Shown: positions 5,893 through 45,121 of the stretch, in pieces
Layout: each line of letters opens with the position of its first letter
How positions within the stretch are numbered: position 1 is the first letter of the stretch
Assembly: GCA_017434185.1 (NCBI GenBank)
Contig: JAFRFV010000050.1
Span: forward strand, 1-56,411
Direction of reading: 5' to 3'
From: Coriobacteriales bacterium
GTDB taxonomy: Bacteria; Actinomycetota; Coriobacteriia; Coriobacteriales; RUG844
DNA: 56,411 nt
The notes under the pieces: model-generated
Told to the model about the DNA's origin: nothing
Seen by the model: only the letters and a program-made list of their open reading frames with translations
The model's database searches: none
Made by a program: the position numbers and the translations under genes

Positions 5893-6075
5893 CTTCGCTC
5901 CTTCCACGTTCGTGGCGCAGCTCGATCGAGCCGCGGTGGAATCAGTATAGCCTTTGGCGCGGGAGTTGTCCTTGCATGCCCACGGAACGATGACATGACG
6001 TGGTTTTCGTGTAGCGACTTGCCTTGAACTGCGGTCGAGGCCCTATCATGTGTCCATTCAAGGGAAGGGAAGCCC

Positions 6076-7110: not shown

Positions 7111-7155
7111 GACGCTTGGCGCCAACCCATCGGAGGGGATGGAGGTTCGATCACC

Positions 7156-7749
7156 ATGAACAAGGCCGACAATGCGATCGCGGTCGAAGTACCGCGCCTG
7201 ATGAGCCCTGAGAAGGCAATGGGCGTCATCGAGCAGTACACCGAATGGATCGACGACGTCGCTTCGCGGTACGGCGTGCCGGCAGCGCTCATCAAGGCCA
7301 TCCTCTACCAGGAGATGACGCGCATGGACGTGCTCGATCCGCTCGCTGACCTCGCCGTGCAGGTCACCCCGGGGCATACGCGCGACAGCTCGACAGGAAT
7401 CGCGCAGATCTTCGGCCACGTGGGGCTCGCGGCGGCCAACTACGCGATCGACCATGAACTCGCATCGTACGAATCGCTGGGGCTGGACACCGACCATCGC
7501 CTGGATGCCGCGGATCCCAAGGACGTGTTCCGCGTTTGGCAGAAGCTGCACGACGACCCCAAGGCCAACATCGAGCTCGCGACGCTCAACCTGCTGGTGG
7601 CCGCCGACGAGGTAGTGGGACGCACCGACTTCGGCAGCTTCAGCGACGACGAGATCAAGCTCGTGCTCACCCGCTACAACGCCAATGTGCGGCACATCAC
7701 CGCCTACGGCGAGGAGGCCTTCGAGCATTACAAGCGCTTCATTGCGTGA
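7156..7749 (+). CDS. Lysozyme-like / lytic transglycosylase (SLT-like) protein
   Basis: IDDVASRYGVPAALIKAILYQE (catalytic Glu position), SSTGIAQI (GLMQ-like) and LTRYNA (AYNA-like). GGAGG RBS. Confidence 0.6.
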   Translation: MNKADNAIAVEVPRLMSPEKAMGVIEQYTEWIDDVASRYGVPAALIKAILYQEMTRMDVLDPLADLAVQVTPGHTRDSSTGIAQIFGHVGLAAANYAIDHELASYESLGLDTDHRLDAADPKDVFRVWQKLHDDPKANIELATLNLLVAADEVVGRTDFGSFSDDEIKLVLTRYNANVRHITAYGEEAFEHYKRFIA

Positions 7750-7850
7750 TCGCTTGGGGATAAGCGCCGCACTTCTCCAGTACATGCGCGGACGCCTTCT
7801 TGTTGTCCCTGAGTTCCTGCAGACCAGCAGCGTCGCTGTCGCACATCGCC

Positions 7851-32600: not shown

Positions 32601-35600
32601 CACGGAGCCGTTGCTGGAGCTGATAAGCGCGGCATCACCGATGCTCGCGATGGTCTTGGTCTTCTGGACGAGCACCTGGATGGTGCCACCCACGCCAACC
32701 TGCTCGCTCGCACCGATGGAGAGTGCGATGGGCAGGAGCTTGGCGTCATCCTGCGCATAGACGATCACGTCGTCGGTCGCATCGACGGTCACGCCCTTGG
32801 CGATCCTGGCGATGTAGGAGTTGTCGGTCACGATGACCGGGATGACCGCGCCCACGCCCACGTTGCCGGTGGAGCTGACACCCGGGGCGATGGCGATCAC
32901 CAGCACGTTGGAGCTCTCATAGGGAATCTCATCCACGCTGGGAGCGTCCACCAGATTGCCGTCCTCGTCGTAGACCTTGCCCCAGGACTTGTCGGGCTGC
33001 GAGCCATGCGCGGTGACGGACACGCCGCCGCCCGCGTTGATGACGCTGTATGCGGAGGCGCTGTCGCTGCCCACGGCGGCAGTGGTGGAGCCGTTGTCCA
33101 CGTAGACGTTCACGCTGGCGCCCACACCCACCGTAGCCTGTGAGATGGAGAAGGAACCGGTGATCATGCGCGCGTTGGTACCGCTGGCAGCCTGCACGGT
33201 CATGTCGTCGTCGAGGTCGATGCGGCAGCCGTCACCGATGCTGGCCTCGATCGTGTTGTTGGCGAACACGAAGGCGAAGCTACCGGCAACACTCGCCACG
33301 CTCTGGCCGGCAGCCGTCTGGACGGCGCCGGCGATGGCCTCGGTGTAGTAGTTGGTGGAGGACAGGAAATTGAGCAGGTCGATGGCACCCAGGATAGTGT
33401 CGGTGTCGATGTTGATGTCCACCTTGTAGGTGGTGGTGTTGCCATCCTGCACGGGCTGGACGGTGAGGATGGCCTGATCCTTGGCCTGGGTGATGTTCTG
33501 GTCGGGAACGGCGGCCTTCTTCACAGCGGGCTTGAGGTCGATCAGGTAGGACCAGTCCTTGCCGATCGCGTAGTCACTGAAGGTGACGATGGCCTTCTCG
33601 GCATCCACGGACAGGCTCTTGCCCAGCAGCTGCACGCCGTCTTCCACGACAGCCTTGACGATGTCGTTGCCGTAGATGAGGGCGAAGGAGGCGCCCACAC
33701 CCACCGTGGAGCCACCGGAACCGGAGAGGGCACCGGCGCGCACGGCGAGCTTGCTCTTGTCGTAGGCCTTGACGGTGATGTCGCCGCCGGTCACGACGCT
33801 GTTCTTCGCGATCTTCGCAACGCTGTCGCTGTTGGACACCAGAACGGAGATGGCACCCGCTACCGTGGCGGTGGAGCCGGCACCGGAGGCGGCACCGGCG
33901 ATGGTCTGGGCACCCAGCAGACCGGCGAAGACGCCGTCCATGTTCTGGGTGTAGGTGACGACCACGTTCACGTCACCGCCGTTGGCGTTGGCGTCGCCAT
34001 CGATGGTCGCGTAGGTTTTGTTGCTGTTCACGCCCACGGCAACAGCGGCGCCCACGGTTGCCATGCTGGCATCGCCCGTCGCGGCGACACCGGTGGCGTA
34101 GGCGCGGTAGTTGGCGTTGTTGGTGGCGAGCACATCGAAGCCACCGGCCACGAGCGTGCCGGAGAGCTTGGCTTCGGCCTTGTGGTCGGTGATGTTCACG
34201 GCCAGAGCGGCGGCGAACTGCACGCTCTTGCTGCTGGAATCAGCGGCGGTCGTGCCTTCGGGGGCGGTGCTCGCGTTGGGGTTGCTCGCGGCATCGGGGA
34301 TGTCGGTCTTGCTGGTGTTGGTAGAAACGGCCGCGGTGCCCTCGCTGGTGGGAGGCTTCTCCTCGGTCTTCACGTTCTGGGTCTTCATGACGTTGCTGGA
34401 GAACGCGGCGCCCGGATCGGACTTGGGCTTCTCGGTCTCGGTGCTGCCATCCGCATGCTGGTTGGTGTTGGCGTTCTTATCAAGCTTCTCGTCGGCCTTG
34501 TCCTTGGTGGCGTTGTCGCCCTTCTTCGCGTTGGGATTGCTCGTGGGCGCGTTGGGGGTGCCCAGGTTGTTGACCCAATCCTCGAAGCTCATGATGCCGC
34601 TGGCGAACTTGCTGAAGTAGCGGGTCAGGTCCGCGCCCATGGCGGTGGCGGTGCCCACGGCCTCGTCTTCGGTGTGGGTCCTGGCATCCAGGTGGACGGT
34701 GCCGGCGGCGGTACCGTTGCCCTTGAAGGTGGCGGTGTTGTCACTCGCGGGGATGTTCACGGCCACGGCGGCGCCCACGGCGGTGGATTCACCGCACGCG
34801 CAGCCGGAGGCCTTGGCAAGGGTCGTGCCCTTGGTCTTGGAGTAGATGGCCACGCTGTAGTAGTCGTCGCCCACCTTGACGGGGTCGGTGGTCCACTGCG
34901 GCGTCGCATCCTCGTCATCGGGATCCTTGATGATGCTGGCGCCGGTCGCATCGAGCGTGCTGTTGCTCTCGAAGGTGGCGGCGGCAACGGAATCGATGAT
35001 GTTCAGGGCGAGGGACGCATCAAGGGAGAAGCCCTTCTTGTTGGTCTCGGGATCCTCGAGCGGGTCGGTACCGGCGACGCTGTAGGTTTCCGCGTCGTAG
35101 TCGGAGATGGCATGCACGTCCAAGCCGCCCACTTCGACCTTGCGGTTCTCGTCGACCTTGGCGGTGGTGTTGACATCGGCGACCACCAGAGCGAATGCGG
35201 CGCCCACACCCACGCCCTTGTTCTTATCCGCATCGGAGGGAGCAGCGCTGCTGCTTCCGCCCACGCCCGTGCTGCTCGAGCTTGAACTGCCGTTCGTGCT
35301 GGTGGCTGTGGTGGTGCTGGCATCCGCCTTACCCGCGGCGTCCGCGTTCTTATCCGGTGCGCTTCCGTCGCCGGTGACGGCGGCGGTGGCAACGGTATCG
35401 AAGGCCTCGGAGCTCTGGGCGGCAACGGTCAGAACGCCATCCACGTGGATGTCTTGTCCGAGAGCGGCACCCTCATGCTTGACGATGGTGGCGGTGGTGT
35501 CGCCGTCGACCACTGCGATGGACACGCTGCCCGCGACGCCCACATCGGAGGCGCCGGCGCCGGCAACGGACCAGGTGGTGAAGGTGCTCGAGGAGACGCT

Positions 35601-38600
35601 ACCGGTGTCGAAGATGGAGCGCAGGAACTCATAGGCCTGGTTGATGACCTTGTTGGGGTGGGTCAGCATCGAGGTCGGGAGCATTTCGGTGAGGCAGTCG
35701 GGCAGGAGATTCCACAACGTGTTGACGTTGAAGAGGCTACCGAAGACGTCGTTGGCCAGGTCGCCCGCGATCTTCTGCATGTCCGCACTCAGGTTGGGAG
35801 CGGGAAGCGGGCTCGCCACACCCAGGCTGTTGCCCAGCATGCTGAAGACCTGGGAGAGAACCGCCTGGGCGACGGGGCCCTTCTGCGCCTCGACCAGGTC
35901 GCTGCGGTTGGCCCACCTTTCCTCCATGCGATCGAGGATCGAGCCGTAGAAGACCTTCATGATGCCATTGAGGTCATCGAGGCTGGGAGGCGTGCCGTTC
36001 TCGAAGTAGTCGATGACGTTCATGACCTTGTCGATCATGTTGTTGAGATAGTTCCTGAGTGCCTCGACCAGGTCGGGCTGCATGGGGCTGCCCTTGCTGC
36101 TGTCTATCTGGGCGGCGAGCACCGTCACGTTGCCATCGGCGTCGATCCTGCTGTCGCCGATGGTCGCCGTGGTCTCATGGTTCACTACGTTGATCGCGAC
36201 GGCCGCACCGATGCCGATCCTGGACTTGGTGGCCGAAGCATTGGAGAAGACCTTGGAGTCCGTGTCGCTGTAGGCGATCACCTGCACGTCGCCCGTGGTC
36301 TGGATGACCAGGCCGTCGCAGATCTCGGCCTTGACCTCGTTGTAGGCGATGGTCAGACCGAAGGCCGCGGCGATGGAGACGCTACCTTCGGTGGTCTGCG
36401 CCTGCTGACGGTTGGCGGTCTTGTCGGTTATGGAGTTGCCGGCGAGGCCAGCGGAACCGGTGAGCTTACCCAGCGAGGAGCCAGCGGCGATGGCTTTGTC
36501 AGCTTGTGCGTCGGAATCACCCTTGGATGCCGATGAACCACCCTCCCCGGAATCGGTGGAGCTGGAGTCTCCACCGGAGCCTCCCCCACCACCGCTCGAG
36601 CTGGAGTCGGTGGACTGGCTGGCGGGCTTGGAGCCACCGGAGCCGGCAGCGCCCGCCTTGGCGGTGTTGGTGGTCTGCTGGACGCCCTTGGCGGTCACGG
36701 AGACGCTGTTGGCCTTGACGGAGCGGTTGAGACGCGAGGTGGTGAGGTCGTTGGCGACCACGATACCGAAGGTGCCACCGATACCGACGTTACTGCCCGC
36801 AGCAGCCGCGTCACCGGTGTAGGTGCGGATCATGCTGTTCTCGGCCTTCAGGACGACGTCACCATCGACCTCGATGGGTTCGCCGCTACCCAGGTAGGCC
36901 TCGACGGTCGAACCCGAAACGCCCAGGGAGAGCGCCGGGGTGACCGAGGTACCACCGGCGGAACCCGCCTTACCGGTGACCATCTGGGTGCCGGACTGCG
37001 TGGCCACGATCTCGATGCCATCCAGGGTGGAGAGCACGGTGAGCGTGCCGTCGGGGATGCGTGCGATGGTGTCGATGCCGGTGACATCGATGGCCAGACC
37101 GGCGCCCACACCCACACCGTCACTGCCGGCGTTGGCCTTGGACGAGCAGTCGGCGACGGTCTTGGTGAAGGTCTTGGCGGAAGCCTTGGCAAGCAGCGGG
37201 CCACCGTCCAGGGTGACATCGGCGCCACTCTCGAGCTGGGCGCTGGTGTCGATACCGTTCACCTGGATGGCGATGGCACCGCCGATGGAGTTGTCTGCAT
37301 TGGAGAAGCCCGCGGGCGCCTGGGCGTCGCTCGAGGCGATCGGGGTGGAGGCGTTGATCTTGAGGCCCTTGGCGTTGACCGTGGAATCCTCGCTGATGTA
37401 GGCGCTGCTGTCGTGATCGATCACCACCAGCGCGAGCGAAGCACCCAGCGCGGTGGTCTCCTGCTTGGCGGGCCTGGAGACGCTTTCGACCTGACCCCTG
37501 CGCACTGTGATCTTGCTGTCCTGCTGATCGCAGGAGATGGCGAGGTCACCCAGGATGATGGTGATCTTGCCACCCTCGACGGTGATCTTATCGCCGTTGC
37601 GGACGAGCTTCACCTCGTTCGTACCGTCGGCCTCCACCATGATGCGGCCGTTCGTGACCTTGAGGGTGGTGTTCTTGAACTGGGTGTCCGAACCCACGAG
37701 CACGAAGCTTCCGGTCTGGCTCTCGCCCTTGCGCACGAAGGTGACATCATCGAAGGCGACCTTGCCGTTGTAGCCACCACTGAACACGAAGCTGAAGGTA
37801 CCGTCGATGTAGACGCTCATCTTCTGGTCCCCAGTGCCCTGGTAGGACTCGTAGGTCGAGCTCGACTCGTTGGCGCCGGTGGACTTGGTGCCGTTCAGGA
37901 CGTGGTAGATCGCTGCCTCGGTGATGGTGAAGGTACCGGTGGACAGATTGATGGGAGTGGCCTTGAGGGAGCGCACCAGGGTGATGCTGGAGCCCTCGGA
38001 TTCCCCGGAGGCGGCGTTGAAGGTGACCGTGACATCGTTGCGGTCCGCATCCTTGAGCTCGATCAGCTCGATCTTGTTGGAATCGAAGTTGGTGCCGGCG
38101 GTGACGTCCACCATCAGGTCCTGATTGAGGTTGAGCTTGCTGCCCGCCTCGTGGGTCGTGACCTGACCGCCGGGCTTGCTCAGTTCCGCGGTGCTGCTGG
38201 AACTGCCTTGGCCGTTCTCGCGAAGGATCTGCGAGTCGCTGTTGCAGGCGACGGTGATGGAACGGAAGGTGGCGCCATCCCCCTTGCCCTCCTTGCGCTC
38301 GACCCTGCCCAGACTGTTCTCGCTCGTGGTGATCTTCACGTCACCACCCACGACCTTCTGGATGTTGAAGTTGCCGGAGACGACATGCTCGCTGTCGTTC
38401 TCACCATCGGTCACGGTGGTGTTGTAGTTGTTGTGCAGGTAGACGGTGCCACCACTCAGCACGAGCGTGGCGCCCATGAGCTTGATGCGCCCTTCTTCAA
38501 GGAGCATCGAGCCGCCCATGACACTCACGGTACCGCCCTCGTAGACCGTGGAGCTGGCACCGTCGGTCGTGGTGGTCTTACCGCCGTTGACGATGACCAC

Positions 38601-41600
38601 CTTGTCGCTGTCGCGGTTGGCCTTCCAGGCGATGTTGGCCTTGATGCCGGAGACCATGTCGATGGTGACGTTCTCGATGGTCGTGGTGCCACCGCTGATG
38701 ATCCAGGAGGCATCGTTGCCGCGGCTCACGGTACCGCCCGCGTTCACGAAGCTCGAGCCGCTATCGGGCTGGATGTTGATCGTGGAGCCCTTGGGGATGT
38801 ACTCGCCGCCGTAGATCTCGATCACGAGGAAGCCATCCTTGTTGAGCTTGTCGATGTCGGTGGACTGCACCGTGGTGGAGAGGCTCGCCTGCTCGGGAAC
38901 CTTGGGATTGCTGGTGGAGCTCACGGCCTTGGTCTTGGTGAGGGTCGTGGCATCCGCCAGGGTGACCGCGATGGTGGTCGCGCTGGAATCCAGAACGACG
39001 TCCGCGTCGCTGTTGATGACGCCGCTGCTGTCGATGTGGGCATCAGCCGAGTTGGTGATCACGGTGATGGCCGCGGCGCCCACCGCGTGGATGGTGGAGC
39101 CGGTGGCCTCGGTGGTCTGGTTCTCAGGATTCTGGGCGTTGGGGTCCTGGCTCTGGTTGTCGCCACTGGAGGAGTTCTCATTGTTGTTCTTCTCGGGCGT
39201 GCTGGAGCTGGTGGCAGTGTCGAAGACCTTGGTGGCGGACTTGTTGTTGTTCTCGTTGCCGCCGGAATCGCCGGAGCCGTCCTCGCCCTCCTGGGACTCC
39301 TGCTTGTCCACGGAATCCTTGGCGATGTCGAAGCCGCCCTGGATCTTGTTGCCGTTGGCATCCTTGGGCTTGATGGTGGTCATGACGGAGCTCATGATCG
39401 CCGGAGCCAGCTTGGTCATCTGGGCGACGGTGAAGTTCTTGATCTTGGTGTTGGCGTCCACGGTGGTCGAAGCGCTGGGCTTGGCGGGGATGGCCTTGCC
39501 CGTGGTCTTGACGCTCGCGCTTGCCTGGGCGCGCACATCGCCGCCGGCGGCGATGTTGGTGTCGCCGGTGATGCGGGCGTTGGCCTCGTGCACCGCGACG
39601 TTGATGACGAAGAAGCCACCGGACTCATACGCCGACTCGCCCTTCTTGGTGAGCGAAGCCTGGCCACTCTGGGTGAGGCTGCTGCTGGCCTTGGCGGCCA
39701 TCGTGCCACCGGTGACGATGGTGGAGTCGTTGATGTCGATGTCGGTGTAGCTCACCGTCACGTCCAGAGCCAGCGAGACCGGAACGAGGCCGGTGTTGGA
39801 AGCCGTGAGTTGCTGGATGGAGGTGTTGGCCTTCATGATCAAGCTGCCATCCGTCTGGATCCTGGCGCCGTCGAGGGTGATGTGGTTGTCCATGACGGCC
39901 ACCGCGATCGCGACCGGCAGGGTGACCATCGTCGCATCGCAGGCGATGGTGATGGTGCCATTGGAGAGCATCTGGATGCCCGCGCCGGCGAAGATGCTGC
40001 CGTAGACGTCGATGCTCGAGTAACCCACCTTGACGGTGACGAAGTTGATCTGCGGGATGGGGAGCATGCCGTGGATCTGCTCGGACTTGGCCTCGATGGA
40101 GACGAATTCGCTCGCGTCGATGACGGCATCCGTCTCGATGGTCACGTTGCCGTCGCAGACGAAGTTGAAGCAGGAGAGGTCGAGGTTCAGGTCGTCCTGA
40201 CCTTCGACCACCGCGCTCACGGGGATGGGGATGACGAAGTTGGTGTCGTCATCGAAGCCGCGCAGGATGATGTTCCTGGCGTAGATGCCCATCGCCTGGC
40301 GCTTATCCTCCGGAACACCGGCGCTCTCCGCCTTCTGCAGAGCGGTGCGGACCGTGGTGGCCTCGGCGGCGTTGGCGCGATCCACGCCGTCGTCGAAGTC
40401 GGCGTAGGCGTCGGGCAGGTTGTCCTGCGTGTAGACGTAGCGACCCACGTGGATGGTGGTCGCCTGGTCGATCACGTTGAGCTGGGGAGCATAGACGTAG
40501 TAGATGTCCTTGATCTCCAGGCGCAGGCTGGCGAGGAACGGGTTGGAGTCATCGGTGAAGATCGCGGCGATGACCGTGTTGCCCGTGGTGGAGATGATGT
40601 AGTCGGTGAAGCTCTCGAGTGCACCGGCGTAGACGATGGTCCCGGAGGCGTTGCCGTTCTTGCCAAGCTCGAGCTCCTTGGACTTCTTGCCCTTGAGATC
40701 GTCGGTATAGGCCTCGATATCGTTGAAGTTGAGGATAAGCGCGTTGTGGACGACGCTGTTGCTGCCCTCGGCGGTCGTGGGCTTGTTGGGCTCGAGGACG
40801 AGGCGGGTGGCATCGCCGGAGATGCCGTAGGCGTTCTTGTCCTTGTCGCTGTAGATGCTGCCGGTCAGGTGGACGCGGTCAGCACCCTCGCCGCCATCGA
40901 CGATGAAGTCGTCGGTGTTGGTGGCGACGTACTGCAGCCCGCTGTCCAGGGTGATGAGGTCGTCGCCGGCGCCACCGTGGATCTCGATGCAGTTGGAAGC
41001 GGTTCCGCTCTTGGCGGAGCTCTTGACCGTGATGCTGTCGTTACCGGCGTCGCCGTAGAACTCGAAGTCGCTGGCCTGGGTCTTGGTGCCAAGGCTCAGG
41101 GTGATCGTGTCGTCGCCGGCGCCGCCGTTGACGGTCGCGATCTGCTGCTTGGCCTTGCTCTCGCTGGCCTCCTTGTAGCTGATGTCGACATTGTCGTCAC
41201 CCGCGCCCAGGTTGATGTCCGACTTGTGCACGTCGGTGAGGGTGATGACCACACTGTCGTTGCCGGAGGTGCCGTTGAAGGCGAAGGACGGGGCGTCGGT
41301 CACATCGATCTTGGTGGTGGACGACGCCGCGCCGCTGTAGACGGCGTCGACGCTGTTCTTGGATCCGCCGGAGAAGAAGAGGCCGGAGATCTCGGTCGTC
41401 AGCTCCTTGATGGTGAAGGACGCCGTCACGTTGGCGCCCACGCCACCCTGGGCGAGCGCGTCGTCGGTCGCGCTGACCACACTGGAGGAGCGGATGATGA
41501 TGGTGAAGTTGTCCTTACCGACGAAGGGGTTGAAGGCGGAGCTCGTCTCGCTGCCGTCGGGGTTCTTGGTGACCACCTTGGGCTCGATCAGGACGGTGCC

Positions 41601-42290
41601 CTCGTAGGTGCCGTCCTTCACGACGATCGTGATGCTGTCCTTCTGGTACAGCGTGCTGTTGTTGGCCTTCTGCAGAGCCGCGTTCACTGCGAGCTGGATG
41701 GCGTTGTCGGTGTTTGAGTTGTTGTACAGCACCGCATCGCCGTATTCTTCGATGTAGGCGCTACCCGTGGGCACCTGGGTCGTGGCCGCATTGGCAGCGG
41801 GCTCCGCAGGGGTGCTGGGGGTGGTGCTGTTGGAGTCGGTGCTGCTGGGATTGTTGTTGCTGTTGTTGTTGTTGGAGTTCTCGTTGTTGGCGTTGTTGTT
41901 GTTCGGATCCGTGTTCTCGTTGTTGGCGTTGGAATCAGTGTTCTCGTTGTTGGCGTTGTTCGGATCCGTGTTCTCGTTGTTGTTGTTGGGATCGGTGTTC
42001 TCGTTGTCGACACCACGCGTGCCACCAACGGCGAAGACGAGGTTGGAGCCACCGTCATCGGTGGGCTCATCCTCGTTCACAACGACGTTTTCGAAGTCAT
42101 CTCCTGTGATGGGATCGTCGCCCTCATCCCCCACATCCGATTGGACCTCGAGAGGGGCATCATCACCACCACCTTCGTCCGCCAAGGCCGGAGGCGACCA
42201 AAGCGTGAGACTCAACGCCAACCACGCGATGAGCGCCATGAAGATGATGAACAGTCGCTTGTTCTGCTTGTGACCCACTGAATCAGTCAT
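17607..42290 (-). CDS. Giant 8,227-aa LPKTG-anchored filamentous surface protein (LktA/FHA-like beta-helix, RTX-like repeats, coiled-coil stalk)
   Basis: One open frame of 24,684 nt. ATG 42290 overlaps the upstream TGA (ATGACTGA) and follows a GGAAGG RBS. Signal peptide ends ALA-D. C-terminus LPKTGD, TM and RRQRA. Confidence 0.92.
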   Translation of the reverse strand: MTDSVGHKQNKRLFIIFMALIAWLALSLTLWSPPALADEGGGDDAPLEVQSDVGDEGDDPITGDDFENVVVNEDEPTDDGGSNLVFAVGGTRGVDNENTDPNNNNENTDPNNANNENTDSNANNENTDPNNNNANNENSNNNNSNNNPSSTDSNSTTPSTPAEPAANAATTQVPTGSAYIEEYGDAVLYNNSNTDNAIQLAVNAALQKANNSTLYQKDSITIVVKDGTYEGTVLIEPKVVTKNPDGSETSSAFNPFVGKDNFTIIIRSSSVVSATDDALAQGGVGANVTASFTIKELTTEISGLFFSGGSKNSVDAVYSGAASSTTKIDVTDAPSFAFNGTSGNDSVVITLTDVHKSDINLGAGDDNVDISYKEASESKAKQQIATVNGGAGDDTITLSLGTKTQASDFEFYGDAGNDSITVKSSAKSGTASNCIEIHGGAGDDLITLDSGLQYVATNTDDFIVDGGEGADRVHLTGSIYSDKDKNAYGISGDATRLVLEPNKPTTAEGSNSVVHNALILNFNDIEAYTDDLKGKKSKELELGKNGNASGTIVYAGALESFTDYIISTTGNTVIAAIFTDDSNPFLASLRLEIKDIYYVYAPQLNVIDQATTIHVGRYVYTQDNLPDAYADFDDGVDRANAAEATTVRTALQKAESAGVPEDKRQAMGIYARNIILRGFDDDTNFVIPIPVSAVVEGQDDLNLDLSCFNFVCDGNVTIETDAVIDASEFVSIEAKSEQIHGMLPIPQINFVTVKVGYSSIDVYGSIFAGAGIQMLSNGTITIACDATMVTLPVAIAVAVMDNHITLDGARIQTDGSLIMKANTSIQQLTASNTGLVPVSLALDVTVSYTDIDINDSTIVTGGTMAAKASSSLTQSGQASLTKKGESAYESGGFFVINVAVHEANARITGDTNIAAGGDVRAQASASVKTTGKAIPAKPSASTTVDANTKIKNFTVAQMTKLAPAIMSSVMTTIKPKDANGNKIQGGFDIAKDSVDKQESQEGEDGSGDSGGNENNNKSATKVFDTATSSSTPEKNNNENSSSGDNQSQDPNAQNPENQTTEATGSTIHAVGAAAITVITNSADAHIDSSGVINSDADVVLDSSATTIAVTLADATTLTKTKAVSSTSNPKVPEQASLSTTVQSTDIDKLNKDGFLVIEIYGGEYIPKGSTINIQPDSGSSFVNAGGTVSRGNDASWIISGGTTTIENVTIDMVSGIKANIAWKANRDSDKVVIVNGGKTTTTDGASSTVYEGGTVSVMGGSMLLEEGRIKLMGATLVLSGGTVYLHNNYNTTVTDGENDSEHVVSGNFNIQKVVGGDVKITTSENSLGRVERKEGKGDGATFRSITVACNSDSQILRENGQGSSSSTAELSKPGGQVTTHEAGSKLNLNQDLMVDVTAGTNFDSNKIELIELKDADRNDVTVTFNAASGESEGSSITLVRSLKATPINLSTGTFTITEAAIYHVLNGTKSTGANESSSTYESYQGTGDQKMSVYIDGTFSFVFSGGYNGKVAFDDVTFVRKGESQTGSFVLVGSDTQFKNTTLKVTNGRIMVEADGTNEVKLVRNGDKITVEGGKITIILGDLAISCDQQDSKITVRRGQVESVSRPAKQETTALGASLALVVIDHDSSAYISEDSTVNAKGLKINASTPIASSDAQAPAGFSNADNSIGGAIAIQVNGIDTSAQLESGADVTLDGGPLLAKASAKTFTKTVADCSSKANAGSDGVGVGAGLAIDVTGIDTIARIPDGTLTVLSTLDGIEIVATQSGTQMVTGKAGSAGGTSVTPALSLGVSGSTVEAYLGSGEPIEVDGDVVLKAENSMIRTYTGDAAAAGSNVGIGGTFGIVVANDLTTSRLNRSVKANSVSVTAKGVQQTTNTAKAGAAGSGGSKPASQSTDSSSSGGGGGSGGDSSSTDSGEGGSSASKGDSDAQADKAIAAGSSLGKLTGSAGLAGNSITDKTANRQQAQTTEGSVSIAAAFGLTIAYNEVKAEICDGLVIQTTGDVQVIAYSDTDSKVFSNASATKSRIGIGAAVAINVVNHETTATIGDSRIDADGNVTVLAAQIDSSKGSPMQPDLVEALRNYLNNMIDKVMNVIDYFENGTPPSLDDLNGIMKVFYGSILDRMEERWANRSDLVEAQKGPVAQAVLSQVFSMLGNSLGVASPLPAPNLSADMQKIAGDLANDVFGSLFNVNTLWNLLPDCLTEMLPTSMLTHPNKVINQAYEFLRSIFDTGSVSSSTFTTWSVAGAGASDVGVAGSVSIAVVDGDTTATIVKHEGAALGQDIHVDGVLTVAAQSSEAFDTVATAAVTGDGSAPDKNADAAGKADASTTTATSTNGSSSSSSTGVGGSSSAAPSDADKNKGVGVGAAFALVVADVNTTAKVDENRKVEVGGLDVHAISDYDAETYSVAGTDPLEDPETNKKGFSLDASLALNIIDSVAAATFESNSTLDATGASIIKDPDDEDATPQWTTDPVKVGDDYYSVAIYSKTKGTTLAKASGCACGESTAVGAAVAVNIPASDNTATFKGNGTAAGTVHLDARTHTEDEAVGTATAMGADLTRYFSKFASGIMSFEDWVNNLGTPNAPTSNPNAKKGDNATKDKADEKLDKNANTNQHADGSTETEKPKSDPGAAFSSNVMKTQNVKTEEKPPTSEGTAAVSTNTSKTDIPDAASNPNASTAPEGTTAADSSSKSVQFAAALAVNITDHKAEAKLSGTLVAGGFDVLATNNANYRAYATGVAATGDASMATVGAAVAVGVNSNKTYATIDGDANANGGDVNVVVTYTQNMDGVFAGLLGAQTIAGAASGAGSTATVAGAISVLVSNSDSVAKIAKNSVVTGGDITVKAYDKSKLAVRAGALSGSGGSTVGVGASFALIYGNDIVKAVVEDGVQLLGKSLSVDAEKAIVTFSDYAIGKDWSYLIDLKPAVKKAAVPDQNITQAKDQAILTVQPVQDGNTTTYKVDINIDTDTILGAIDLLNFLSSTNYYTEAIAGAVQTAAGQSVASVAGSFAFVFANNTIEASIGDGCRIDLDDDMTVQAASGTNARMITGSFSISQATVGVGASVNVYVDNGSTTAAVGSDSASAYSVINAGGGVSVTAHGSQPDKSWGKVYDEDGNLVDAPSVDEIPYESSNVLVIAIAPGVSSTGNVGVGAVIPVIVTDNSYIARIAKGVTVDATDDVIVYAQDDAKLLPIALSIGASEQVGVGGTIQVLVQKTKTIASIGDAALISSSNGSVRVEANSEEFLVNVLGSISASTQVGEAAVINVDVTRSQTLASIGKNAIVTAKNDISVAAESETFMVAVSTALTGSGNVAVGAVVNVFVFDRDVVARVDKGAKLTADLGDVLLFAKAKDYSVIVAVGGAASGTAAVDGTIPVIVSTNRVAAIIGEADTNDAANTAITATKGSVGVIADYDTKMYVAAGGFAGGGKAGVGAVVLTTVVDNDVLALIGYGAVVAAGGGGAGLTVPVRTGKRKGVIVSATSNETFVGVAVAGAAGGNAGVAGVVNTGVFNNTVHAIIYGGGRIDADSNDDSEGDLQTFASSDSDIYLVSGSLSAAGSVGVGASVTVLTYNKDIVASVNAYRAGEVHAHDVQVIAGDKRSPYGITNNLDESTAATDDLYIFSVSISAGGTAVGAGATVLYFEDSTTAELGGSVQASGDVIVAALNDSHLINAAGAVGASGSASVSGIVAVTYFNATPTAKAVAGAAIVAAGGVTINANSIERIDADVLGITGSGSASVSGTIAVVVTGVTTKAFIADSDEAGAKCTVTAASLSVLAKDSYTLLGIAGTAAIAGQAGVGVTAIVSVSNNSIEAYIGKDAAVTCSGDVTVDATGLRDIQMYLATLAGGQAGVGVTVLVSVVGGGLDQDSSDAILTEDRVLTCDEYQDDGKDGHKHTDDCYSDEKYHYLKPGDFWDDLNGILFPDEASKQTAAGKSVNARLGDTDFEGIFEGDGTSHVDTVDGNGFQGDPNYVEVTPGSNPKDQNLYELRDGKYVYTTDIAPVAGKKYYYCSPKAKDMIAVEDPDELDLATYYEKASDGSFHLTSDKTLKNKTYYVLDPGVDSNVAAINAVDKDGSAANLGSADVPVISGDDTARAYIASGATVTAHDITVNAKSELLLDLMAFTASGGIVGVSTTVAVGVTHANAVAYVESGSRLSATGDVKVTSWTGSSNVAAPEGSDEAARNAQYKAQLEAGSADKTKLANAGAVFNGRSVRVVGAAGAIGMVGVAPCVAVLVLDSNSYAYIAGDVDRAASVTVTAETHFPTAATATFGLAFGKVAVSASAAVIVSNGVAYSGIVGNARIQNVSGTVKVNSNTEFDATSFAASIAGGELAVNGAVAVSVDHMTVHTLVGQAVSMSDVSMLEVIADATVTAHANIIKGTVGAIAVGVGVSVAVLDPIILTYVGSTPLKEGKVTTPIAGAAGSNAKASVGALTIKNNITTHGHAFTLGISAGGVSVGANVLVVSNDSLVRAGIFGKDVVVTGATAIDSNFTAVATTQVLDVNVGAIAVGVNVYISKLSADNRAMVDTTAAQVETGSLTVSAGAETNPNITQANAVGVGSANGAIAIAVNVAYAQNKTTNNAQVLGAGKLSVRNGALTVQANGRATALASIDPGIVEISGVKINANVALAYVDSTQEARVENASISTNGGAVNVKSNFNVPTVLSSGATQYGAISLISVNGPKGKSNGDAVNSKGQKVSVTLVGITVSVGKANMDATVRAIITGATIDTQGQNGTGAVNVNTKAYSYANADAAAALVSISLVNVGVTDTRANASGTFEALLDVSGVNTVGTTSIDCTYDSNSFAGNGPAGGLAVSVVKVTVNVARSATTTVANAGLTGSGTLAVKGSLTVSATGSSTAETEGRTYKYDISGIKVAVNDAVSTQNVAQSAYSTFAGVFSSTSYLKVSSLLGTETTPINATSTVGSSAGASVGLLANVTVNTAKALSSSSNQAYITGAGRDATHYGPTGNVTVESKTYANTTATAKAGVAVSGLATTGDLESYADSNDSVIAKIESLTLEAGGYVKINGYSKANVNAITTSGGGIGGTVVEEMNACTNMGSADNQQTVSATIGDDTNISAGGNIELTAENFGATQGKVAGGTSLSASVGTVDVEFISKADFLTSAGVGEGARLNAGGDISIVADSKPEVISDAKATIIAVAVSVSKTYAQAVTTTTTNATIGKNAELFANNGVSIQARGNVEQQTITATDAVGVFSGKGEIQAHTTITRNVTASIGNGASIIADFGDISIKSIAGDLDEIVNKAYVTAAAFAGFSKARTYSTIESSATTTVGSGVTIENTFGKVDIIADSSLRYFYNYASTDARGVGADPDTKTDTDLTLKGTVTVGASTGDTTYITGRHVKLDSLSSTMKIIDSSRAYGAAAGASVNSTTQILAVIENTTKVVKSVIRGYDTVVVSSSSAPAVASVGESSSGQNLVARSYAAIYAVGEANSNAFILSKSSIKTNVNLDATTIYGADIDILSTNALKYDPDADGYKSSFLAGLYPNTKKPDSKNIAAAVDIKSSCKFYVGDAAAGIVIDIYGSASDPKVRAVGLRGERPIWSITSGEDGVVRLSDISNPIKGTLDIARNYNGTVINVPLPASQVYDQNMIPYVRINNRIGIAVELAAITVENSNYLNPTVNGKSVATANKTGEKGGANNGPVRPEVLITNHANGNAIVTDLIANPTGTVSFIWTDPEMRGDLIAKIESTLTANMGQVAPIWGNIFVVTGAQNVGGNGTDDVLNKGYRLNIFSTWADDAQPSTSVNAAGDIWMNITDVKIITLPKGSEPPAAAPRENTVLISNIVGGATTDVVINTAISVYRQANSTVIAMPTPGTLEYTVDKLAKLSTNISLDKDALATYKIGESGSESIFLLPNGTYIYTDQDGVATRIIEGGIDVTLGSFEISSQNGTLLAKLGEGVSLDLSTGKITVSEGASLEMLLSSVDGNWLKNIVTGGSRIVVYDESNPVEVSESYPEYDDYGNVVIGEDGTPSMIVITKSVPKEVELTASLLATYGSISYYQLTAVDSADGDYTLGAAFGSSAPDHPIFLISFDSSDGVVMGVWQASEKNLDIASGKDYIDYNLCSDNKDGWTYDEQGVAHLIMDEIWNTGDTIIIGFLCPSENNAEHALKRPETIEFENFLGTGYSVDVKPNYGGSTSSGTNHSYIRSIAGFYYHGFKLEAIVLQNGYYSVDEAAAANASSDLQAVYAALSGKIWKASYDSERTTLITYSQNAHSGDSINTKIWLPNAPTGNSDEEYWDSRTLRFCYKTYPDDDDDHSYTGVRAFQCAYTVTLSYIDLLPADAIVEQRVETSGSTSTYSSVLVLTPSDNSESNESKLILNGPIDGVTVKSVSLPSDTVFASSASAKTGYKITEALYVATDGTYYFREPADLGAFIEWFDRTFDADEYTTTSVSDDGTISIMEVAQRVILFRTTKDFLNSTSFTDPDVSLTKKLFAINVALLEDEYSNVNQRNEAAFNALNDSANYAQWLARMIANNVSNADKALKALDKLCDPRDVASGYLSVGGVQQAWYRPYGSTYTFDAELTTVTTPVTRGASASTVTLKTTAGSANDIYLEVLSPEVVHAVDGRYFILKTNDEDIELEDAVAMKTIFTNDQTGITTETIKVSNESGVLYLTIENSYQDGELIFVKETLKDGTVVDSDGNVIPGNPANTWTVNEQNGSTYAVSTIVGKDTKVTLMDKGYVDEIGIFQPAELTNGYPTPALVGDTITIVTHEGTNVGEYGDGLTNAPYTPDTDVSIEFETLEGDSNIITGKVNLATDGNVSLPQNLIVTQEAEYHHSATGEMSFDSITAYANSEVELYGEQGLSGDIIIGNDNASFTLGSDGDINSADHYLVVDLPQDNTLNINHANDYYLVGVEAANEAVDHPNTSGRDEDGNQVSGAHMGDMGDQTVNADIVSGDSADLASWILERIEGHDEVIAQLDDAAADPCDDYVNNNDAAGFAQWLDRQIAQGTLDDTAIADLVAALLTDADVAPIVDDTLTPEELEAANEAARAAYIESILADDAGLATWLVNHLAADDAAVKPAELSEVAAQKVDDIIAAGDADALAAWIADQKDQGAIDEALISSVITQLLTAQDLQDIEQGAWENTNYPPADGSALDNLRGMDISVLESTGSAYVQNLGDIQITQQTGTLTAGNITSEYGDVTLTNLDGGIVGAADQAVNVQGNDITMNAAGEVGPIVIETGVPHVTVIGNIQNQTQGGEPKVTYDAATDAFVTTWDVDYDQVATYDKRETASLTIEAWDDVDVTEKSGDLGVNTIFASGTAELTAASISDVRADGETEPNIEAQGVTLTATNGSIGSVDEPIMINTNGEGNTADDSVNAVARGDVNLTETYGDMRVGAIVAGGAANLVVENGDLVDVSEDELLSKLAELLEEAAIAQQQAESAQAAVELREERLQQLKDAYEAAKDATGDARLARDDAQEEADVAATAAAAAQAVADHANKQAADFNAAEQELADALKSGDSNRITAAEQALETLKQQIAAEEGLDPDQVTAESLDSIAAAATNVAQDAADANAAAQQKFSDAQKDLSDAMQAEDEAKQALDALQNEHDILEQKAQFAADQATAAAAAAAQIQQKLDALEDARDEVKDAQEAVNAANDALDDIKQQIADELGIDPDDVTDEVAAQYVTDMQDAANQAAADAAAAQDIANQAAADAAAAQNAANQAAADAAAAQNAANQAAEDAAAAQNAANQAAADAVAAKDAYDAAVAGGDPDAIAAAQAVAEQAAADATVAQNAADKAAADATVAQNAADKAAATAAVAQKDADQAAAAAAAAQKDADQAAAAAAAAQAAVEHVQQEADDLASAEQAVAQTQADLDAAKDELEQVLADTGTAEPSITTGGDLNIAANNVGSSSNPLSTDVGGQLNINGDANGNDVGGVNVQNTGDLTTGVISAGDDVTLVAGGDIQVDNGDDTVADVTGDNVTIHSTGGDVGSSNDPIVVDANTVDIVGQNVNVQGAQDLHIDNVVASDSANISANGDIADTGNGAGVVADNVNLDAGGNIGTNNNPLDVNANNVNSNSGDDTNLDLSSPNTNLVVNAGGDANIHSSGAVQGSTNSQNLNLEADGDVGSADDYFDVTVDEQTGTADVSSNFGNVYVLMHPADFELSFDLTGGTWDGKTGIVTIIAKEGTIFILPLPYREGYIFLYWLGSIYYAGDGYEVIAGHSFTAVWAKEGGNGVYDALPKTGDSAPIVVLICMIMLAAAIMTVILRRQRA
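18910..19386 (-). repeat. Coding tandem repeat with 42-bp (14-aa) period, Ala/Gln-rich, in two blocks of about 5 units
   Basis: Units start at 18910, 18952, 18994, 19036 and 19078, and at 19177, 19219, 19261, 19303 and 19345. Example unit: AADAAAAQNAANQA. Confidence 0.85.
40870..41225 (-). repeat. Five RTX-like GGxGxDx(I/V) repeats in the giant protein
   Basis: LGAGDDNV, GGAGDDTI, GDAGNDSI, GGAGDDLI and GGEGADRV. Confidence 0.7.
41848..42008 (-). repeat. Asn-rich low-complexity repeat (NENTDPN units with AAC runs) near the mature N-terminus
   Basis: GTGTTCTCGTTGT recurs at 41911, 41938, 41968 and 41995, with (GTT)n tracts in between. Confidence 0.8.
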
Positions 42291-42624
42291 GATCCACATC
42301 CTTCCCAGCACGGTCCTGTGGGGCGCGCTGTTCGGACTTACGACGATAGGAGATGCATCCGAGCGTTATCGCTACGGCGGCGACGAAGGAGATGACGCCA
42401 ACGAGCACATAGCCACCGGCGTCACTGAACAGAAGGGACGAGCCGTAGAGTTCGATGACATCGCCCGAACTCGCATGGGAGAACGAGGCGATGAGGCCGA
42501 CGATGCCCACGACCAGAGCCGCACACGCTGAGGAGAGCACGGAGATGCTGCGATTCACGGCAGCACGACGTTGCGCGTGCACGCGGGATTCGACGAGTCT
42601 GATCCTTGCATCCGTGTCCAACAT
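42283..42624 (-). CDS. 2-TM membrane protein, paralog of 44059-44466; candidate anti-sigma or co-regulator
   Basis: GGAGGT RBS. N-terminal D.RI..V..R....R helix, TM1, short loop, and TM2 GGYVLVGVISFVAAVAITL. Coupled to the giant gene. Confidence 0.75.
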   Translation of the reverse strand: MLDTDARIRLVESRVHAQRRAAVNRSISVLSSACAALVVGIVGLIASFSHASSGDVIELYGSSLLFSDAGGYVLVGVISFVAAVAITLGCISYRRKSEQRAPQDRAGKDVDHD

Positions 42625-42666
42625 GGGACGGACACCTCCCTGGGTAGAACAGTCTTACGATGCTGA

Positions 42667-42701
42667 AATACGCAGGGAGGATGGATTCCTCTCACTTTTT
42701 T
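42667..42701 (-). promoter_or_regulatory. Candidate ECF promoter (A6 tract, TGAGAG-N16-CGTATT) for the giant-protein operon
   Basis: In the 107-nt gap after prsW: -35 at 42689-42694, -10 at 42667-42672, A-tract at 42696-42701. Confidence 0.5.
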
Positions 42702-42731
42702 CCAAAAGGTTCGAGTGGGATTCGCGGACGC

Positions 42732-43385
42732 TCAATCCTGACCGATGGAGAGGGTCTGATACCGTGCGCGACGTCGCGCGAAGAGCACGACGCAGGTGAG
42801 GATGGGCGCGGCGAATGCGACATACATCGCCACTCCACCCGCCGCCAGAAGCACGTTGTAGATCTCGTGGAAGGTGATCGAGACGCATAGCATGGCGAAG
42901 CCGCCTGCGGCACGCGTCGAGATGCGTTCGGAGGTGCGCCTGAGCATCACGAGGCCGTACACCACCAGCATGACGCAGGCCAAGTGCATTGCGCCCGTGC
43001 CGAAGCCACGCAGGATGAGGAGTGGGAGGGACGCGGCGCCGTTCTCGATGAGATAGCAGACGTTCTCCAAGGTGGCGAAGCTTATGCCTATCAGAAGACC
43101 GAAGTTGATGAGCCCTTCGTCGTCTGGGTCGAACACCGAGAGTACGAAGACGATGGGGAGGAACTTGGCCGCCTCCTCGACCACAGGGGCGATCTCGGTG
43201 GCTGTGGCGGTGGCGTCGGCACCATAGACTTGGGCGAGGAAAGCACTCACATAGGCGGAGAGCAAGCAGGCGACCATACCCAGGACGACCGCGAAGATGC
43301 CCGGTCTGCGCTTGTCATCAACGAACAGGAGCAGCACCACGATGGGTGCCACCAGGCAGACGAATATGTTCTCGACGTACAGCAT
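42732..43385 (-). CDS. prsW: PrsW-family intramembrane glutamic/metalloprotease
   Basis: Motifs APVVEEAAKF (EExxK), FATLEN, GAMH and HEIYN; multiple TMs. Confidence 0.87.
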   Translation of the reverse strand: MLYVENIFVCLVAPIVVLLLFVDDKRRPGIFAVVLGMVACLLSAYVSAFLAQVYGADATATATEIAPVVEEAAKFLPIVFVLSVFDPDDEGLINFGLLIGISFATLENVCYLIENGAASLPLLILRGFGTGAMHLACVMLVVYGLVMLRRTSERISTRAAGGFAMLCVSITFHEIYNVLLAAGGVAMYVAFAAPILTCVVLFARRRARYQTLSIGQD

Positions 43386-44062
43386 CAGGCATCATCACCA
43401 CCAAGGGCGGGGGTGACGTCCAGCTTCCTGACTGCGGATGCGATCAACAGGAGTGACACGTACATGAGGATGCTGAGCAGGTAGTAGGGGTTCGTGATGT
43501 CCGAAGAACGGTTCACGATCGAGACGGACCACATGGCGTACTCGAGAACGACGAATGCCGTCGCGGCGAAGTAGAGCCTGGTATGCCTCTTGATCCCCTT
43601 CTGGGCATCCTTCTTCGCCCTGAACAGGCCCGAACAGGCGAAGAGTGCGATGCCCGCCATCGCGAAGCCCATGAGCACGTTGAACACCGGGTCTCCGGAC
43701 TCGATGATGAACCAACCCGTGAGCAGCGCGATGATTGCCGGGATGACCCAGGCACCGGGGTGTATGGCTTCGAGTCCCTCCTTGCTGTAGAGCTCGATGA
43801 CGAGCAACAGCAGGAATATCTCCTCCGCCAACCAAGCGAGTTCGGCGCCGTAGAAATACTGGGGATTGACCCCGAAGACGAGCGTGTAGAGCGCCCAATA
43901 GGTGTCACCCAGCAGAGCGACACCGAAGAAGCCACGTGCGAACAGACGGATGTCGTTGTTCTGCCAGTCACGCTTCATGAACACCAGCACCGCACAGACG
44001 ATCAGAACGACGGAGCCCAGGATGTTCACGATCTGCTCTATGTTGCTGGAGATGAAGCTCAC
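43385..44062 (-). CDS. Stand-alone 7-TM membrane protein of unknown function
   Basis: Seven hydrophobic segments by inspection. Coupled on both sides by GTGA and TGATG overlaps. Confidence 0.75.
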   Translation of the reverse strand: MSFISSNIEQIVNILGSVVLIVCAVLVFMKRDWQNNDIRLFARGFFGVALLGDTYWALYTLVFGVNPQYFYGAELAWLAEEIFLLLLVIELYSKEGLEAIHPGAWVIPAIIALLTGWFIIESGDPVFNVLMGFAMAGIALFACSGLFRAKKDAQKGIKRHTRLYFAATAFVVLEYAMWSVSIVNRSSDITNPYYLLSILMYVSLLLIASAVRKLDVTPALGGDDA

Positions 44063-44466
44063 CTGGACGCACTCCCGTCGTGGTCGCCGTTGGGCTTGCC
44101 GGGAGCATTGGATTTCGTATCGTCGCTGATGGCGCCGGCGTATCCATCCTCCTTCATGCGCTCTTTGACCCTCATGCAGAGCAGCGTCACACCCACGCCC
44201 AGGCAGAACGCCAGGATGCCGATGACGACGAACCCCAGCATGCCACCCGAAGCCACGATCGAGCCGTACATTCCCGTTGGCCCCGATGGTGTGGCTGGGG
44301 CGGCGTTCATGACACCGGGGATGTAGGCGGCGAAGCCGACGATGATGGCGAGCGAAGCAGCGACACCAAGCCCCGACACCAGCATACTGTTGCGCTGGCG
44401 CCGGTTGCGCTGCAATTCGCGCGTACGCATCTGTACCGCAGCGAGTCTCTCATCAGTCGAACGCAT
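44059..44466 (-). CDS. 2-TM membrane protein directly after ECF sigma no. 2; candidate anti-sigma
   Basis: MRSTDERLAAVQMRTRELQR, TM1, loop, and TM2 LGFVVIGILAFCLGVGVTLL. Overlaps the sigma stop. Confidence 0.75.
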   Translation of the reverse strand: MRSTDERLAAVQMRTRELQRNRRQRNSMLVSGLGVAASLAIIVGFAAYIPGVMNAAPATPSGPTGMYGSIVASGGMLGFVVIGILAFCLGVGVTLLCMRVKERMKEDGYAGAISDDTKSNAPGKPNGDHDGSASR

Positions 44467-44998
44467 CCGTCACACCCTTCTTCACCAAGAGCGGTTTCAT
44501 CGCCACCTTACCGCGCGCGATCAGGTTGTCCACCTGTTTGCGCGACTTGCCCATCACTTCCGCGGCCCGCTCGTAGGACATGCCCTCAATATACACGAGA
44601 TAGAGCGCCTCGCGATAGTCCGCGGGGAGCTCGTCCAAACAGTCGCGCACGATGCGCGATACATCGGTCGAGAAGACCGTGGTCTCCACGCGGCGCTCAT
44701 CCTCCGGCTCGAGCTCGAGCAACTCGAAACTGAGGGTACGCCTGCTCCGCTCCAGATGGCGCAGAGCCAGGTTGCGTGCGGTCTTGTACAGGTACGGACG
44801 GAACCCACCCGCAACGAGCCGCGGACGCTTGGCGATGACACGCGAGAAGGACTCGATCATGAGGTCTTCGGATTCGTGGATGTCATGGAGGTACCCGTTG
44901 ATATACAGGGTGAGACTGTCACCATAGCGGTCCATGAGCACCCTCAGACCCGACTCGTCTCCTAAGAGGAAGCCGTTGAAACAGCGCTCATCATTCAT
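44453..44998 (-). CDS. ECF sigma-70 factor (no. 2)
   Basis: SEDLMIESF, FRPYLYKTARNLAL, and region 4 LPADYREALYLVYIEGMSYERAAEVMG. Start codon uncertain (44998 or 45013). TATAAT lies at 45049-45054 on the minus strand. Confidence 0.92.
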   Translation of the reverse strand: MNDERCFNGFLLGDESGLRVLMDRYGDSLTLYINGYLHDIHESEDLMIESFSRVIAKRPRLVAGGFRPYLYKTARNLALRHLERSRRTLSFELLELEPEDERRVETTVFSTDVSRIVRDCLDELPADYREALYLVYIEGMSYERAAEVMGKSRKQVDNLIARGKVAMKPLLVKKGVTDAFD

Positions 44999-45121
44999 GC
45001 CGTCGCGCATCATCACCCCGGGGGAATCGACGTTTGGAACCATCTGCGATTATACGCGATGCCCCTTCATGGGGATACGGTCGCACGGTCGACCGGAGTG
45101 GCAGGCGAGAGCCCGTGCGAA

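Follow-up and report, generated by a model that had tools for sequence, protein, structure and literature searches.

How is the synthesis of a wall-anchored protein of 8,227 amino acids (aa) controlled, and what part do the five small genes ahead of its gene play? This question was raised by a 56,411-nucleotide (nt) stretch of DNA, positions 1-56,411 of contig JAFRFV010000050.1 (the window), in which genes for an extracytoplasmic function (ECF) sigma factor, a small membrane protein (A), a seven-helix membrane protein (T7), a PrsW-family protease and a second small membrane protein (B) precede the giant gene. All cassette and output genes lie on the minus strand. Comparison with other genomes supported a single conserved functional unit made up of the giant gene and the five small ones, in which the sigma factor very probably drives a promoter ahead of B. 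The overall explanation as a regulatory cassette, in which A and B would restrain the sigma factor and PrsW would release it, has about an even chance of being right.

The sigma gene (44453..45010) was followed by the genes for A (44059..44466; 135 aa), T7 (43385..44062; 225 aa) and the PrsW-family glutamic-type intramembrane protease (42732..43385; 217 aa). The preliminary description of this locus had these four genes overlapping at their start and stop codons, and the overlaps were found to be 14 nt (sigma and A), 4 nt (A and T7; GTGA) and 1 nt (T7 and PrsW; TGATG). A gap of 107 nt, containing a conserved promoter block (42645..42701), separated the protease gene from B (42283..42624; 113 aa). 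The coupling of B to the 24.7-kb giant gene (17607..42290) was also borne out: the stop codon of B overlapped the ATG of the 8,227-aa open reading frame (ORF) at 42290, with an overlap of 8 nt between the two genes (sequence ATGACTGA). The longest ORF for the sigma factor spanned 44453-45043. Its homologues (five orthologues) were 185 aa long and began with MRD, with the same Shine-Dalgarno spacing as in the window (GGGGTG-ATG-ATG), so the start was placed at 45010 (M12 of the longest ORF). The start at 44998 implied earlier was ruled out on the same grounds.

Cassette synteny held, and the gene order was kept in other genomes. These counts refer to the best 80 of 485 loci from a scan of one genome per species, with the genes in the 80 loci assigned by hidden Markov models (HMMs) built from the window's lineage. 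The order sigma-A-T7-PrsW occurred in ~74 of the 80 loci, which places the arrangement far beyond chance, and B lay downstream in ~50. B was usually followed by a large protein with a signal peptide, often with a 4-nt overlap (~50 loci). Almost all of the 80 loci came from Clostridia of many families, together with one metagenome-assembled genome labelled Eggerthellaceae.

The sigma factor contained Sigma70_r2 (PF04542, E=1.9e-8) and Sigma70_r4_2 (PF08281, E=5e-16) as its only domains and scored 73.6 bits against a cut-off of 42.9 with the general ECF model TIGR02937. With sigma-2 and sigma-4 domains only and 185 aa, where ~170-200 aa are expected, it belongs to the ECF (group 4) sigma factors. 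None of the named-equivalog cut-offs of NCBIfam (SigW, SigM, SigV, RpoE) was reached: scores were 36.8-43.3 bits against 209-243 for SigW and 43.5 against 199 for SigM, and the best match was PRK05602 (79.8 against 208). One decayed copy of the cassette was seen (L072, 2984-4833), in which the sigma gene was frameshifted near its 3' end and the T7 gene was broken by stops, while A, PrsW and B were intact; sigma and A were in frame there only through the sigma frameshift.

The promoter block ahead of B consisted of an A-tract, GTGAGAG (-35-like), a 15-nt spacer, GCGTATT (-10-like) and then CATCGTAAGACTGTT. Across five members of the lineage, the footprint read AAAAAA-(G)TGAGGA-N-GCG(T/G)ATT-CAGCATCGTAGGACTGTT followed by a Shine-Dalgarno sequence, and the 5' half of the PrsW-B gap was unconserved. 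At the same position, Clostridial loci had the consensus GGTG(C/A)G(T/A)(A/G)GTTTT-N12-TGTACCTATATAAGT-(G/A)AAGGACTTTTT. In a manual alignment on GTGAGAG, the 15-nt spacer was common to both versions, as was the distance of 18 nt from the -10-like element to GGACT(G/T)TTT; the window's version had drifted, with a shift to higher G+C content. The -35-like element and spacer also formed an imperfect inverted repeat at 42675-42693 (GAGAGGA-ATCCA-TCCTCCC), which was weakly kept in relatives.

A DNA HMM of the Clostridial motif gave one match per locus in the 80 loci; this always lay immediately ahead of B, never ahead of sigma, and the single locus with two matches had two B genes. Within the window's 2.0-Mb genome the motif had one copy, ahead of B. 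In five genomes with no B adjoining the cassette, a B-type gene was found elsewhere, and the motif was clear in four of these genomes (E 1e-10 to 2e-8) and marginal in one (E=0.3). The bare degenerate pattern is not rare, with a match in 12 of 100 shuffles, so the weight of the promoter rests on its conservation and position. A motif that was always ahead of B, never ahead of sigma and present once in the genome supports a path from the sigma factor to B and the giant protein, and this is the part of the explanation held with most confidence. The dedicated link from sigma to adhesin that had been proposed is thus well founded, since B and the giant gene stand behind their own promoter, which tracks with the cassette.

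Transcript evidence was available for a Clostridial cassette covered by metatranscriptome contigs at 96% identity. These contigs covered the sigma 5' region and A-T7-PrsW and ended at the PrsW stop codon; none lay over the promoter or the beginning of B, and coverage resumed in the adhesin gene at lower depth. A run of unrecorded type, probably DNA, was continuous across the same region. Upstream of sigma, the B-type promoter motif was absent both in the window's genome and in the 80 loci. A generic sigma-70 scan upstream of sigma did not find a full -35/-10 pair. The hexamer TATAAT at 45049..45054 (minus strand), read from the sequence ~35 nt upstream of the sigma start, is suggestive of a candidate -10 element in a constitutive, housekeeping-type promoter of the sigma-A-T7-PrsW operon; relatives had TAGAAT in its place. 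It was concluded that an ordinary promoter probably serves the sigma operon, and that the B-giant operon has a promoter to itself, very probably one used by this sigma factor alone. That single operon would then make up the predicted regulon in this genome.

The next question was what A and B are. Both had ~27 cytoplasmic residues ahead of the first transmembrane helix (TM1), two transmembrane (TM) helices and an outer loop of ~20-25 aa; A ran from an N-terminal cytoplasmic helix into TM1, through a short outer loop to TM2 and a cytoplasmic tail. A and B aligned collinearly over their full length (BLASTP E=5e-9, 26% identity), with 13 invariant columns across eight orthologues. The likeness claimed earlier for the N-terminal helix and TM2 therefore held, and the TM2 strings that had been quoted for it were present. 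A and B are true, ancient paralogs. Common to both was an N-terminal helix with the motif D/E-x-R...V..R (D/E5, R7, V11, R14), and the end of the loop and TM2 were highly conserved; in A the best-conserved parts were the MRSTEER N-terminus and the loop end with TM2. The A/B family comprised 1,622 clusters at 50% identity, 572 of them at E<=1e-10; its members fell into two types, A (MRSTEER...) and B (M.DT.ER...), which the A and B HMMs told apart cleanly. No Pfam or NCBIfam family was found for A or B, in the window or in the Clostridial versions.

Class I anti-sigma factors have an N-terminal domain of ~80-90 aa, often zinc-binding, a single TM helix and an extracytoplasmic domain. A and B did not conform to this class (RsiW-like, zf-HC2), as they had no domain match, two TM helices and a short outer loop. 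Their gene position, topology and shared N-terminal motif nevertheless make it somewhat probable that A and B are anti-sigmas. They would hold the sigma factor through their conserved N-terminal cytoplasmic helix; in support of this, D/E5, R7, V11 and R14 are shared, A occupies the classical anti-sigma position and the sigma factor is the only soluble product of the cassette. Two rumen Eubacterium-like loci (L045, 6771-9125; L077, 990-3633) had the order sigma-7TM-PrsW-B with no A gene, and therefore one paralog can suffice, which fits interchangeable activity of A and B.

A different role for B was weighed at this point. B might instead act as a decoy or in positive feedback, either by competing with A for PrsW or T7 or by reporting the export of the giant protein, and expression would then be locked on (bistable) rather than pulsed. 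Consistent differences between A and B fell in the loop and TM2 (ASIF..LGYIVIGLLAF in A, LL.E.AGGYVLVGV in B), the parts likeliest to contact PrsW or T7, and across phyla the two paralogs have stayed distinct, both of which speak for such a role. Yet the N-terminal cytoplasmic motif was the same in both, which suggests the same cytoplasmic partner, and the loci with B and without A fit B doing the job of A. A decoy role for B was judged unlikely, and the reading of B as a second anti-sigma was kept.

Release of the sigma factor would fall to the protease. The protein matched PF13367 at 64.6 bits (E=1.2e-17) against a gathering cut-off of 23.5, and E70, E71, K74, F103, E107, N108, R126, H134, H173 and N177 were invariant among 14 homologues. 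With this profile match and the conserved EExxK, FxxxEN and HxxxN motifs, it is a member of the PrsW family (PF13367, MEROPS M82). It is not the B. subtilis PrsW equivalog, as it scored 33.3 bits against 225 with NF033739. Three PrsW-family genes were present in the window's 2.0-Mb genome, the cassette gene included, which makes the cassette copy an extra, dedicated one. The two others lay on contigs C56 (8193-8762) and C207 (7816-8268), one of them inside an open frame of 403 aa. An M50 site-2 protease was found on contig C230 (6325-7530; PF02163, E=1.4e-54), so that the genome contains the site-2 protease which a cascade of regulated intramembrane proteolysis requires. PrsW of Bacillus is the site-1 protease of the anti-sigma RsiW. 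That the cassette PrsW cleaves A and B is slightly favoured over the contrary.

The gene for the remaining protein, T7, always directly preceded that for PrsW, and the stop codon of the first overlapped the start codon of the second. Its AlphaFold2 model had seven helices at a predicted local distance difference test score (pLDDT) of 93.2 and a predicted template modelling score (pTM) of 0.89. Foldseek returned no match to this model at E<=1e-3; the best likeness was to generic 7-TM bundles of the proteorhodopsin or G-protein-coupled receptor kind (E=6.7e-3, TM-score 0.5-0.57, root-mean-square deviation >6 A). No Pfam or NCBIfam family was found for T7 in the window or in the Clostridial versions, and a profile search of PDB sequences was also empty. 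A strongly basic loop at residues 148-160, RAKKDAQKGIKRHTR, predicts an N-out/C-in topology under the positive-inside rule, which is our own reading of the sequence. The near-invariant residues E9, W56, P67, W77, N128, E174, Y175, W178 and P192 fell in the outer half under that predicted topology and would therefore fit an outward-facing binding site.

Two other identities for T7 were discarded. A dead PrsW paralog was considered since MAFFT kept aligning the two proteins, and hhalign gave this a probability of 0.5%. A histidine-kinase sensor domain, as some members are labelled at NCBI, was rejected: all strong T7 matches in Clostridia (E<=1e-10) were single-copy stand-alone ORFs of ~210-280 aa or truncated ones, and T7 had no HisKA_7TM or kinase Pfam match. 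Two weak partial matches (E ~1e-4) lay in longer frames, also in Clostridia. A role for T7 as sensor or gate of PrsW cleavage can be put forward tentatively, at somewhat less than an even chance.

Public names for proteins in the clusters of three loci (L085, L098 and L103) conflicted: 'ABC transporter' or 'DUF4179 domain-containing' for A, 'histidine kinase' for the 7-TM protein and 'glycosyltransferase' for B. There was no domain evidence behind the database names of A, T7 or B family members, and the names 'ABC transporter', 'histidine kinase' and 'glycosyltransferase' mislead for these families.

Together, these parts suggest the following mechanism. The sigma-A-T7-PrsW operon would be transcribed from an ordinary promoter, as was seen for the Clostridial homologue and is presumed here. 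The ECF sigma would recognise one special promoter, found here only ahead of B and the giant gene, a step well supported by comparative genomics. At rest, A would keep the sigma factor at the membrane through its N-terminal cytoplasmic helix, which is conserved. The PrsW-family protease may then cut A where the highly conserved outer-loop end passes into TM2. What remained would be a single-TM stub in N-in orientation, comparable to RsiW after its site-1 cut, which the M50 site-2 protease could finish, and sigma would be freed. Least securely of all, T7 might modulate the access of PrsW to A in response to a cue from outside or from the envelope. Free sigma would fire the promoter, and B, made together with the giant protein, would presumably re-capture sigma and so limit a costly product.

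Several observations weigh against this mechanism. The ~27-residue cytoplasmic N-terminus of A and B matched no known anti-sigma domain in Pfam or NCBIfam, and binding of sigma by either protein is deduced indirectly, which leaves both as candidate anti-sigmas. The promoter in the gap, described earlier as ECF-like, proved to be a real phylogenetic footprint, yet it is without the classic AAC/CGT signature of the ECF consensus. ECF sigma factors are typically, if not universally, autoregulated positively from their own target promoter; the sigma gene here had no such signature, as the B-type motif was not upstream of it, unlike in most ECF systems. RNA for the window's own locus amounted to a few read-sized contigs of low depth. 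No terminator was seen between PrsW and B, and one low-depth RNA contig from a relative crossed the PrsW-B gap, so some read-through is possible. A co-fold of A and T7, taken from an in-frame read-through of the two (L105), reached a pTM of 0.67 with pLDDT of 48-84 over the membrane part and outer loop of A, a result that weighs neither way.

The output of the window's cassette is a giant secreted wall-anchored protein. Its N-terminus, MTDSVGHKQNKRLFIIFMALIAWLALSLTLWSPPALA, has a signal peptide, and its C-terminus, LPKTGDSAPIVVLICMIMLAAAIMTVILRRQRA, contained LPKTG, a hydrophobic stretch and the basic tail RRQRA, as in sortase-anchored (LPXTG) proteins. No Pfam domain was found in either half. 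The protein was rich in A, G, S, T, V and D, with an alanine-rich repeat-like stretch (AAQNAANQAAADA...) near its C-terminus. Orthologues in relatives of the lineage were 63-66% identical over >2,500 aa, and this orthology points to old, vertical co-inheritance of the giant gene with the cassette. The gene for a second secreted protein (16401..17567, minus strand; 388 aa; Pfam DUF7507, DUF11 and Flg_new), with a signal peptide and a TPKTGD-type anchor with the sorting signal TPKTG, lay 40 nt downstream of the giant gene and may be co-transcribed with it as the final member of the output operon. None of the window ORFs that were scanned encoded a sortase. In one close relative (L009, 4448-13649), B was followed by minus-strand ORFs and not by the giant gene, and a large plus-strand ORF resumed at 11207; this scaffold is interrupted by a run of N, and misassembly or rearrangement may account for the order.

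Clostridial outputs ranged from ~600 to >2,500 aa and had SLH or LPXTG anchoring, some with known Ig, fn3 or SLH domains. The preliminary description had the cassette dedicated to a giant surface protein. The dedicated link to an output stood; only in the actinobacterial lineage is that output giant, and the cassette itself is a widespread Clostridial module with varied outputs.

These outputs also bear on an explanation in which A, B, T7 and PrsW form a membrane machine that handles the giant protein, by processing, quality control or clearing of signal peptides or anchors, while the sigma factor is constitutive or otherwise controlled. Three observations would suit a handling machine: in most loci B shows translational coupling to the output protein, neither A nor B contains a recognisable anti-sigma domain, and one genome seems to keep PrsW-B-adhesin ~8 kb from sigma-A-7TM. 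A second case of separated PrsW-B-adhesin genes lay at contig ends and is probably an assembly break. However, output proteins were unrelated in sequence and anchoring across loci while A, B, T7 and PrsW stayed conserved, and some cassettes had no output gene nearby at all. A also always overlaps the 3' end of sigma, the canonical anti-sigma position, and both A and B have their conserved N-terminal helix in the cytoplasm, where sigma is the only soluble cassette product. Such a machine appears improbable, and control of sigma by A and B remains the preferred reading.

The distribution of the cassette was followed in genomes and in a database of 5.8 billion proteins. T7 was found in 26 of 399 sampled Clostridia species (~6%); in the class to which the window belongs, 1 genome of 401 had it. 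A search for T7 and A/B in 400 genomes of that class returned the window alone; there were weak A/B matches, and the seven that were opened had no sigma-like neighbour. Close relatives of T7 formed only seven clusters in the protein database (57-93% identity), and the contigs of all seven had the order sigma-A-T7-PrsW-gap-B-giant, with giants of 6,925-8,947 aa. A search with PrsW gave hundreds of Clostridial proteins at 44-51% identity. Two contigs of such matches were opened: one contained a full cassette and the other PrsW-B-surface protein. In the PrsW tree, the window's lineage formed one clade (100/100 support) on a long branch, and Clostridial families were intermixed. The window's lineage is a separate actinobacterial (Eggerthellaceae-like) clade with a rare actinobacterial copy of a cassette common in gut Clostridia.

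Three Clostridial loci (L082, L085 and L097, positions 1-9200; Pseudoruminococcus, Ruminococcoides and Hominifimenecus) were 96-97% identical in DNA over 9.2 kb. These are cultured gut species of different Clostridial families, and the identical stretch included SNF2 helicase, sortase, SpoVG and DUF6674 genes. Identity stopped at the B/adhesin junction, beyond which the output genes differed. Neighbours of Clostridial cassettes included TraG-like, CHAP, SNF2-helicase and sortase genes. Near-identity ending at the B/adhesin junction, together with such neighbours, indicates that the cassette is mobile in gut Clostridia and that the output differs between copies.

In a further reading, the cassette would belong primarily to conjugative or other mobile elements and serve to turn on an adhesin for cell-cell contact, the window's copy being a domesticated remnant. 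The shared 9.2 kb across families, the kinds of neighbouring genes, the mixing of families in the PrsW tree and one A protein labelled 'MULTISPECIES' on at least 1,000 contigs are what this origin would lead one to expect. No conjugation genes were present among the window ORFs scanned, T7 was in no PLSDB plasmid by tblastn, and the window's lineage is an old separate clade with an orthologous, vertically inherited giant gene, all of which count against it. Of the alternatives considered, this is the one given least credence; it concerns origin and use and is compatible with the mechanism of sigma control favoured here.

A more specific form of that mechanism can also be imagined. T7 and PrsW would be a receptor-protease pair reading the state of the cell surface or the export of the giant, A would be a constitutive cleavable latch, and B a resetting latch or competitor made one-for-one with the giant, so that the pair meters single bursts. 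This version is a long shot. If it were true, A and B would represent a new class of minimal (~27-residue) anti-sigma, and T7 would be the first case of a 7-TM protein, encoded on its own, that partners an intramembrane glutamic protease.

Of the site-1 proteases in ECF signalling, PrsW is the one least well understood, down to the signal that it senses. The cassette offers a small, self-contained setting in which to study the gating of PrsW-type proteases, and its single promoter is an easy readout. It would add three uncharacterised protein families, of which A/B alone has the 1,622 clusters given above. It would further explain the control of very large adhesin-like surface proteins in gut Clostridia and in an Eggerthellaceae-like lineage, proteins that probably shape colonisation and cell-cell contact.

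The locus was earlier held to match no known ECF mechanism, and in line with this there was no Pfam or NCBIfam family for A, B or T7 and no paper was found on them or on the cassette. A search of the literature on the cassette, and of the text of the ECF reclassification paper for PrsW, found no description. The closest described system is sigmaW/RsiW/PrsW/RasP of B. subtilis, and the logic is probably the same. As in that system, there is an ECF sigma, an N-in membrane-anchored candidate inhibitor, a PrsW-family protease with intact EExxK, FxxxEN and HxxxN, and an M50 site-2 protease in the same genome. Unlike in that system, the prsW gene of the cassette is part of the sigma operon and is accompanied there by the gene for a new, obligatory 7-TM protein; both the cassette PrsW and the sigma factor fall below the NCBIfam equivalog cut-offs. 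The candidate anti-sigma differs from RsiW in its hairpin of two TM helices, in having just ~27 aa in the cytoplasm and in lacking a zinc-binding anti-sigma domain. The cassette sigma is not autoregulated, a second paralog lies in the output operon and the regulon is apparently one operon, again unlike sigmaW.

An ECF sigma system with a PrsW-type protease also occurs in C. difficile, where activation of CsfT-RsiT and CsfU-RsiU is reported to need PrsW (Ho and Ellermeier 2011). The anti-sigmas of CsfT and CsfU are reportedly conventional single-pass proteins and prsW is unlinked, with no 7-TM partner, paralog pair or dedicated surface output. For B. subtilis sigmaM, a passage of PMC6827917 describes more than one small membrane protein (YhdL and YhdK) as restraining the ECF sigma. 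Unlike A and B, YhdL and YhdK are not paralogs and both lie in the sigma operon; that system has a large regulon and no dedicated protease or 7-TM protein.

Compared with the cassettes of gut and rumen Clostridia, the window had the same six parts in the same order, with the same promoter type ahead of B, whereas its output was giant (6,925-8,947 aa in the lineage), without a Pfam domain, LPXTG-anchored and vertically inherited. Overall, the cassette is a conserved variant of ECF sigma/anti-sigma regulated proteolysis for which no description was found, with three unnamed protein families. To it the window adds an actinobacterial clade, a promoter shifted in G+C content and a vertically inherited, domain-less LPXTG giant of ~8,000 aa.

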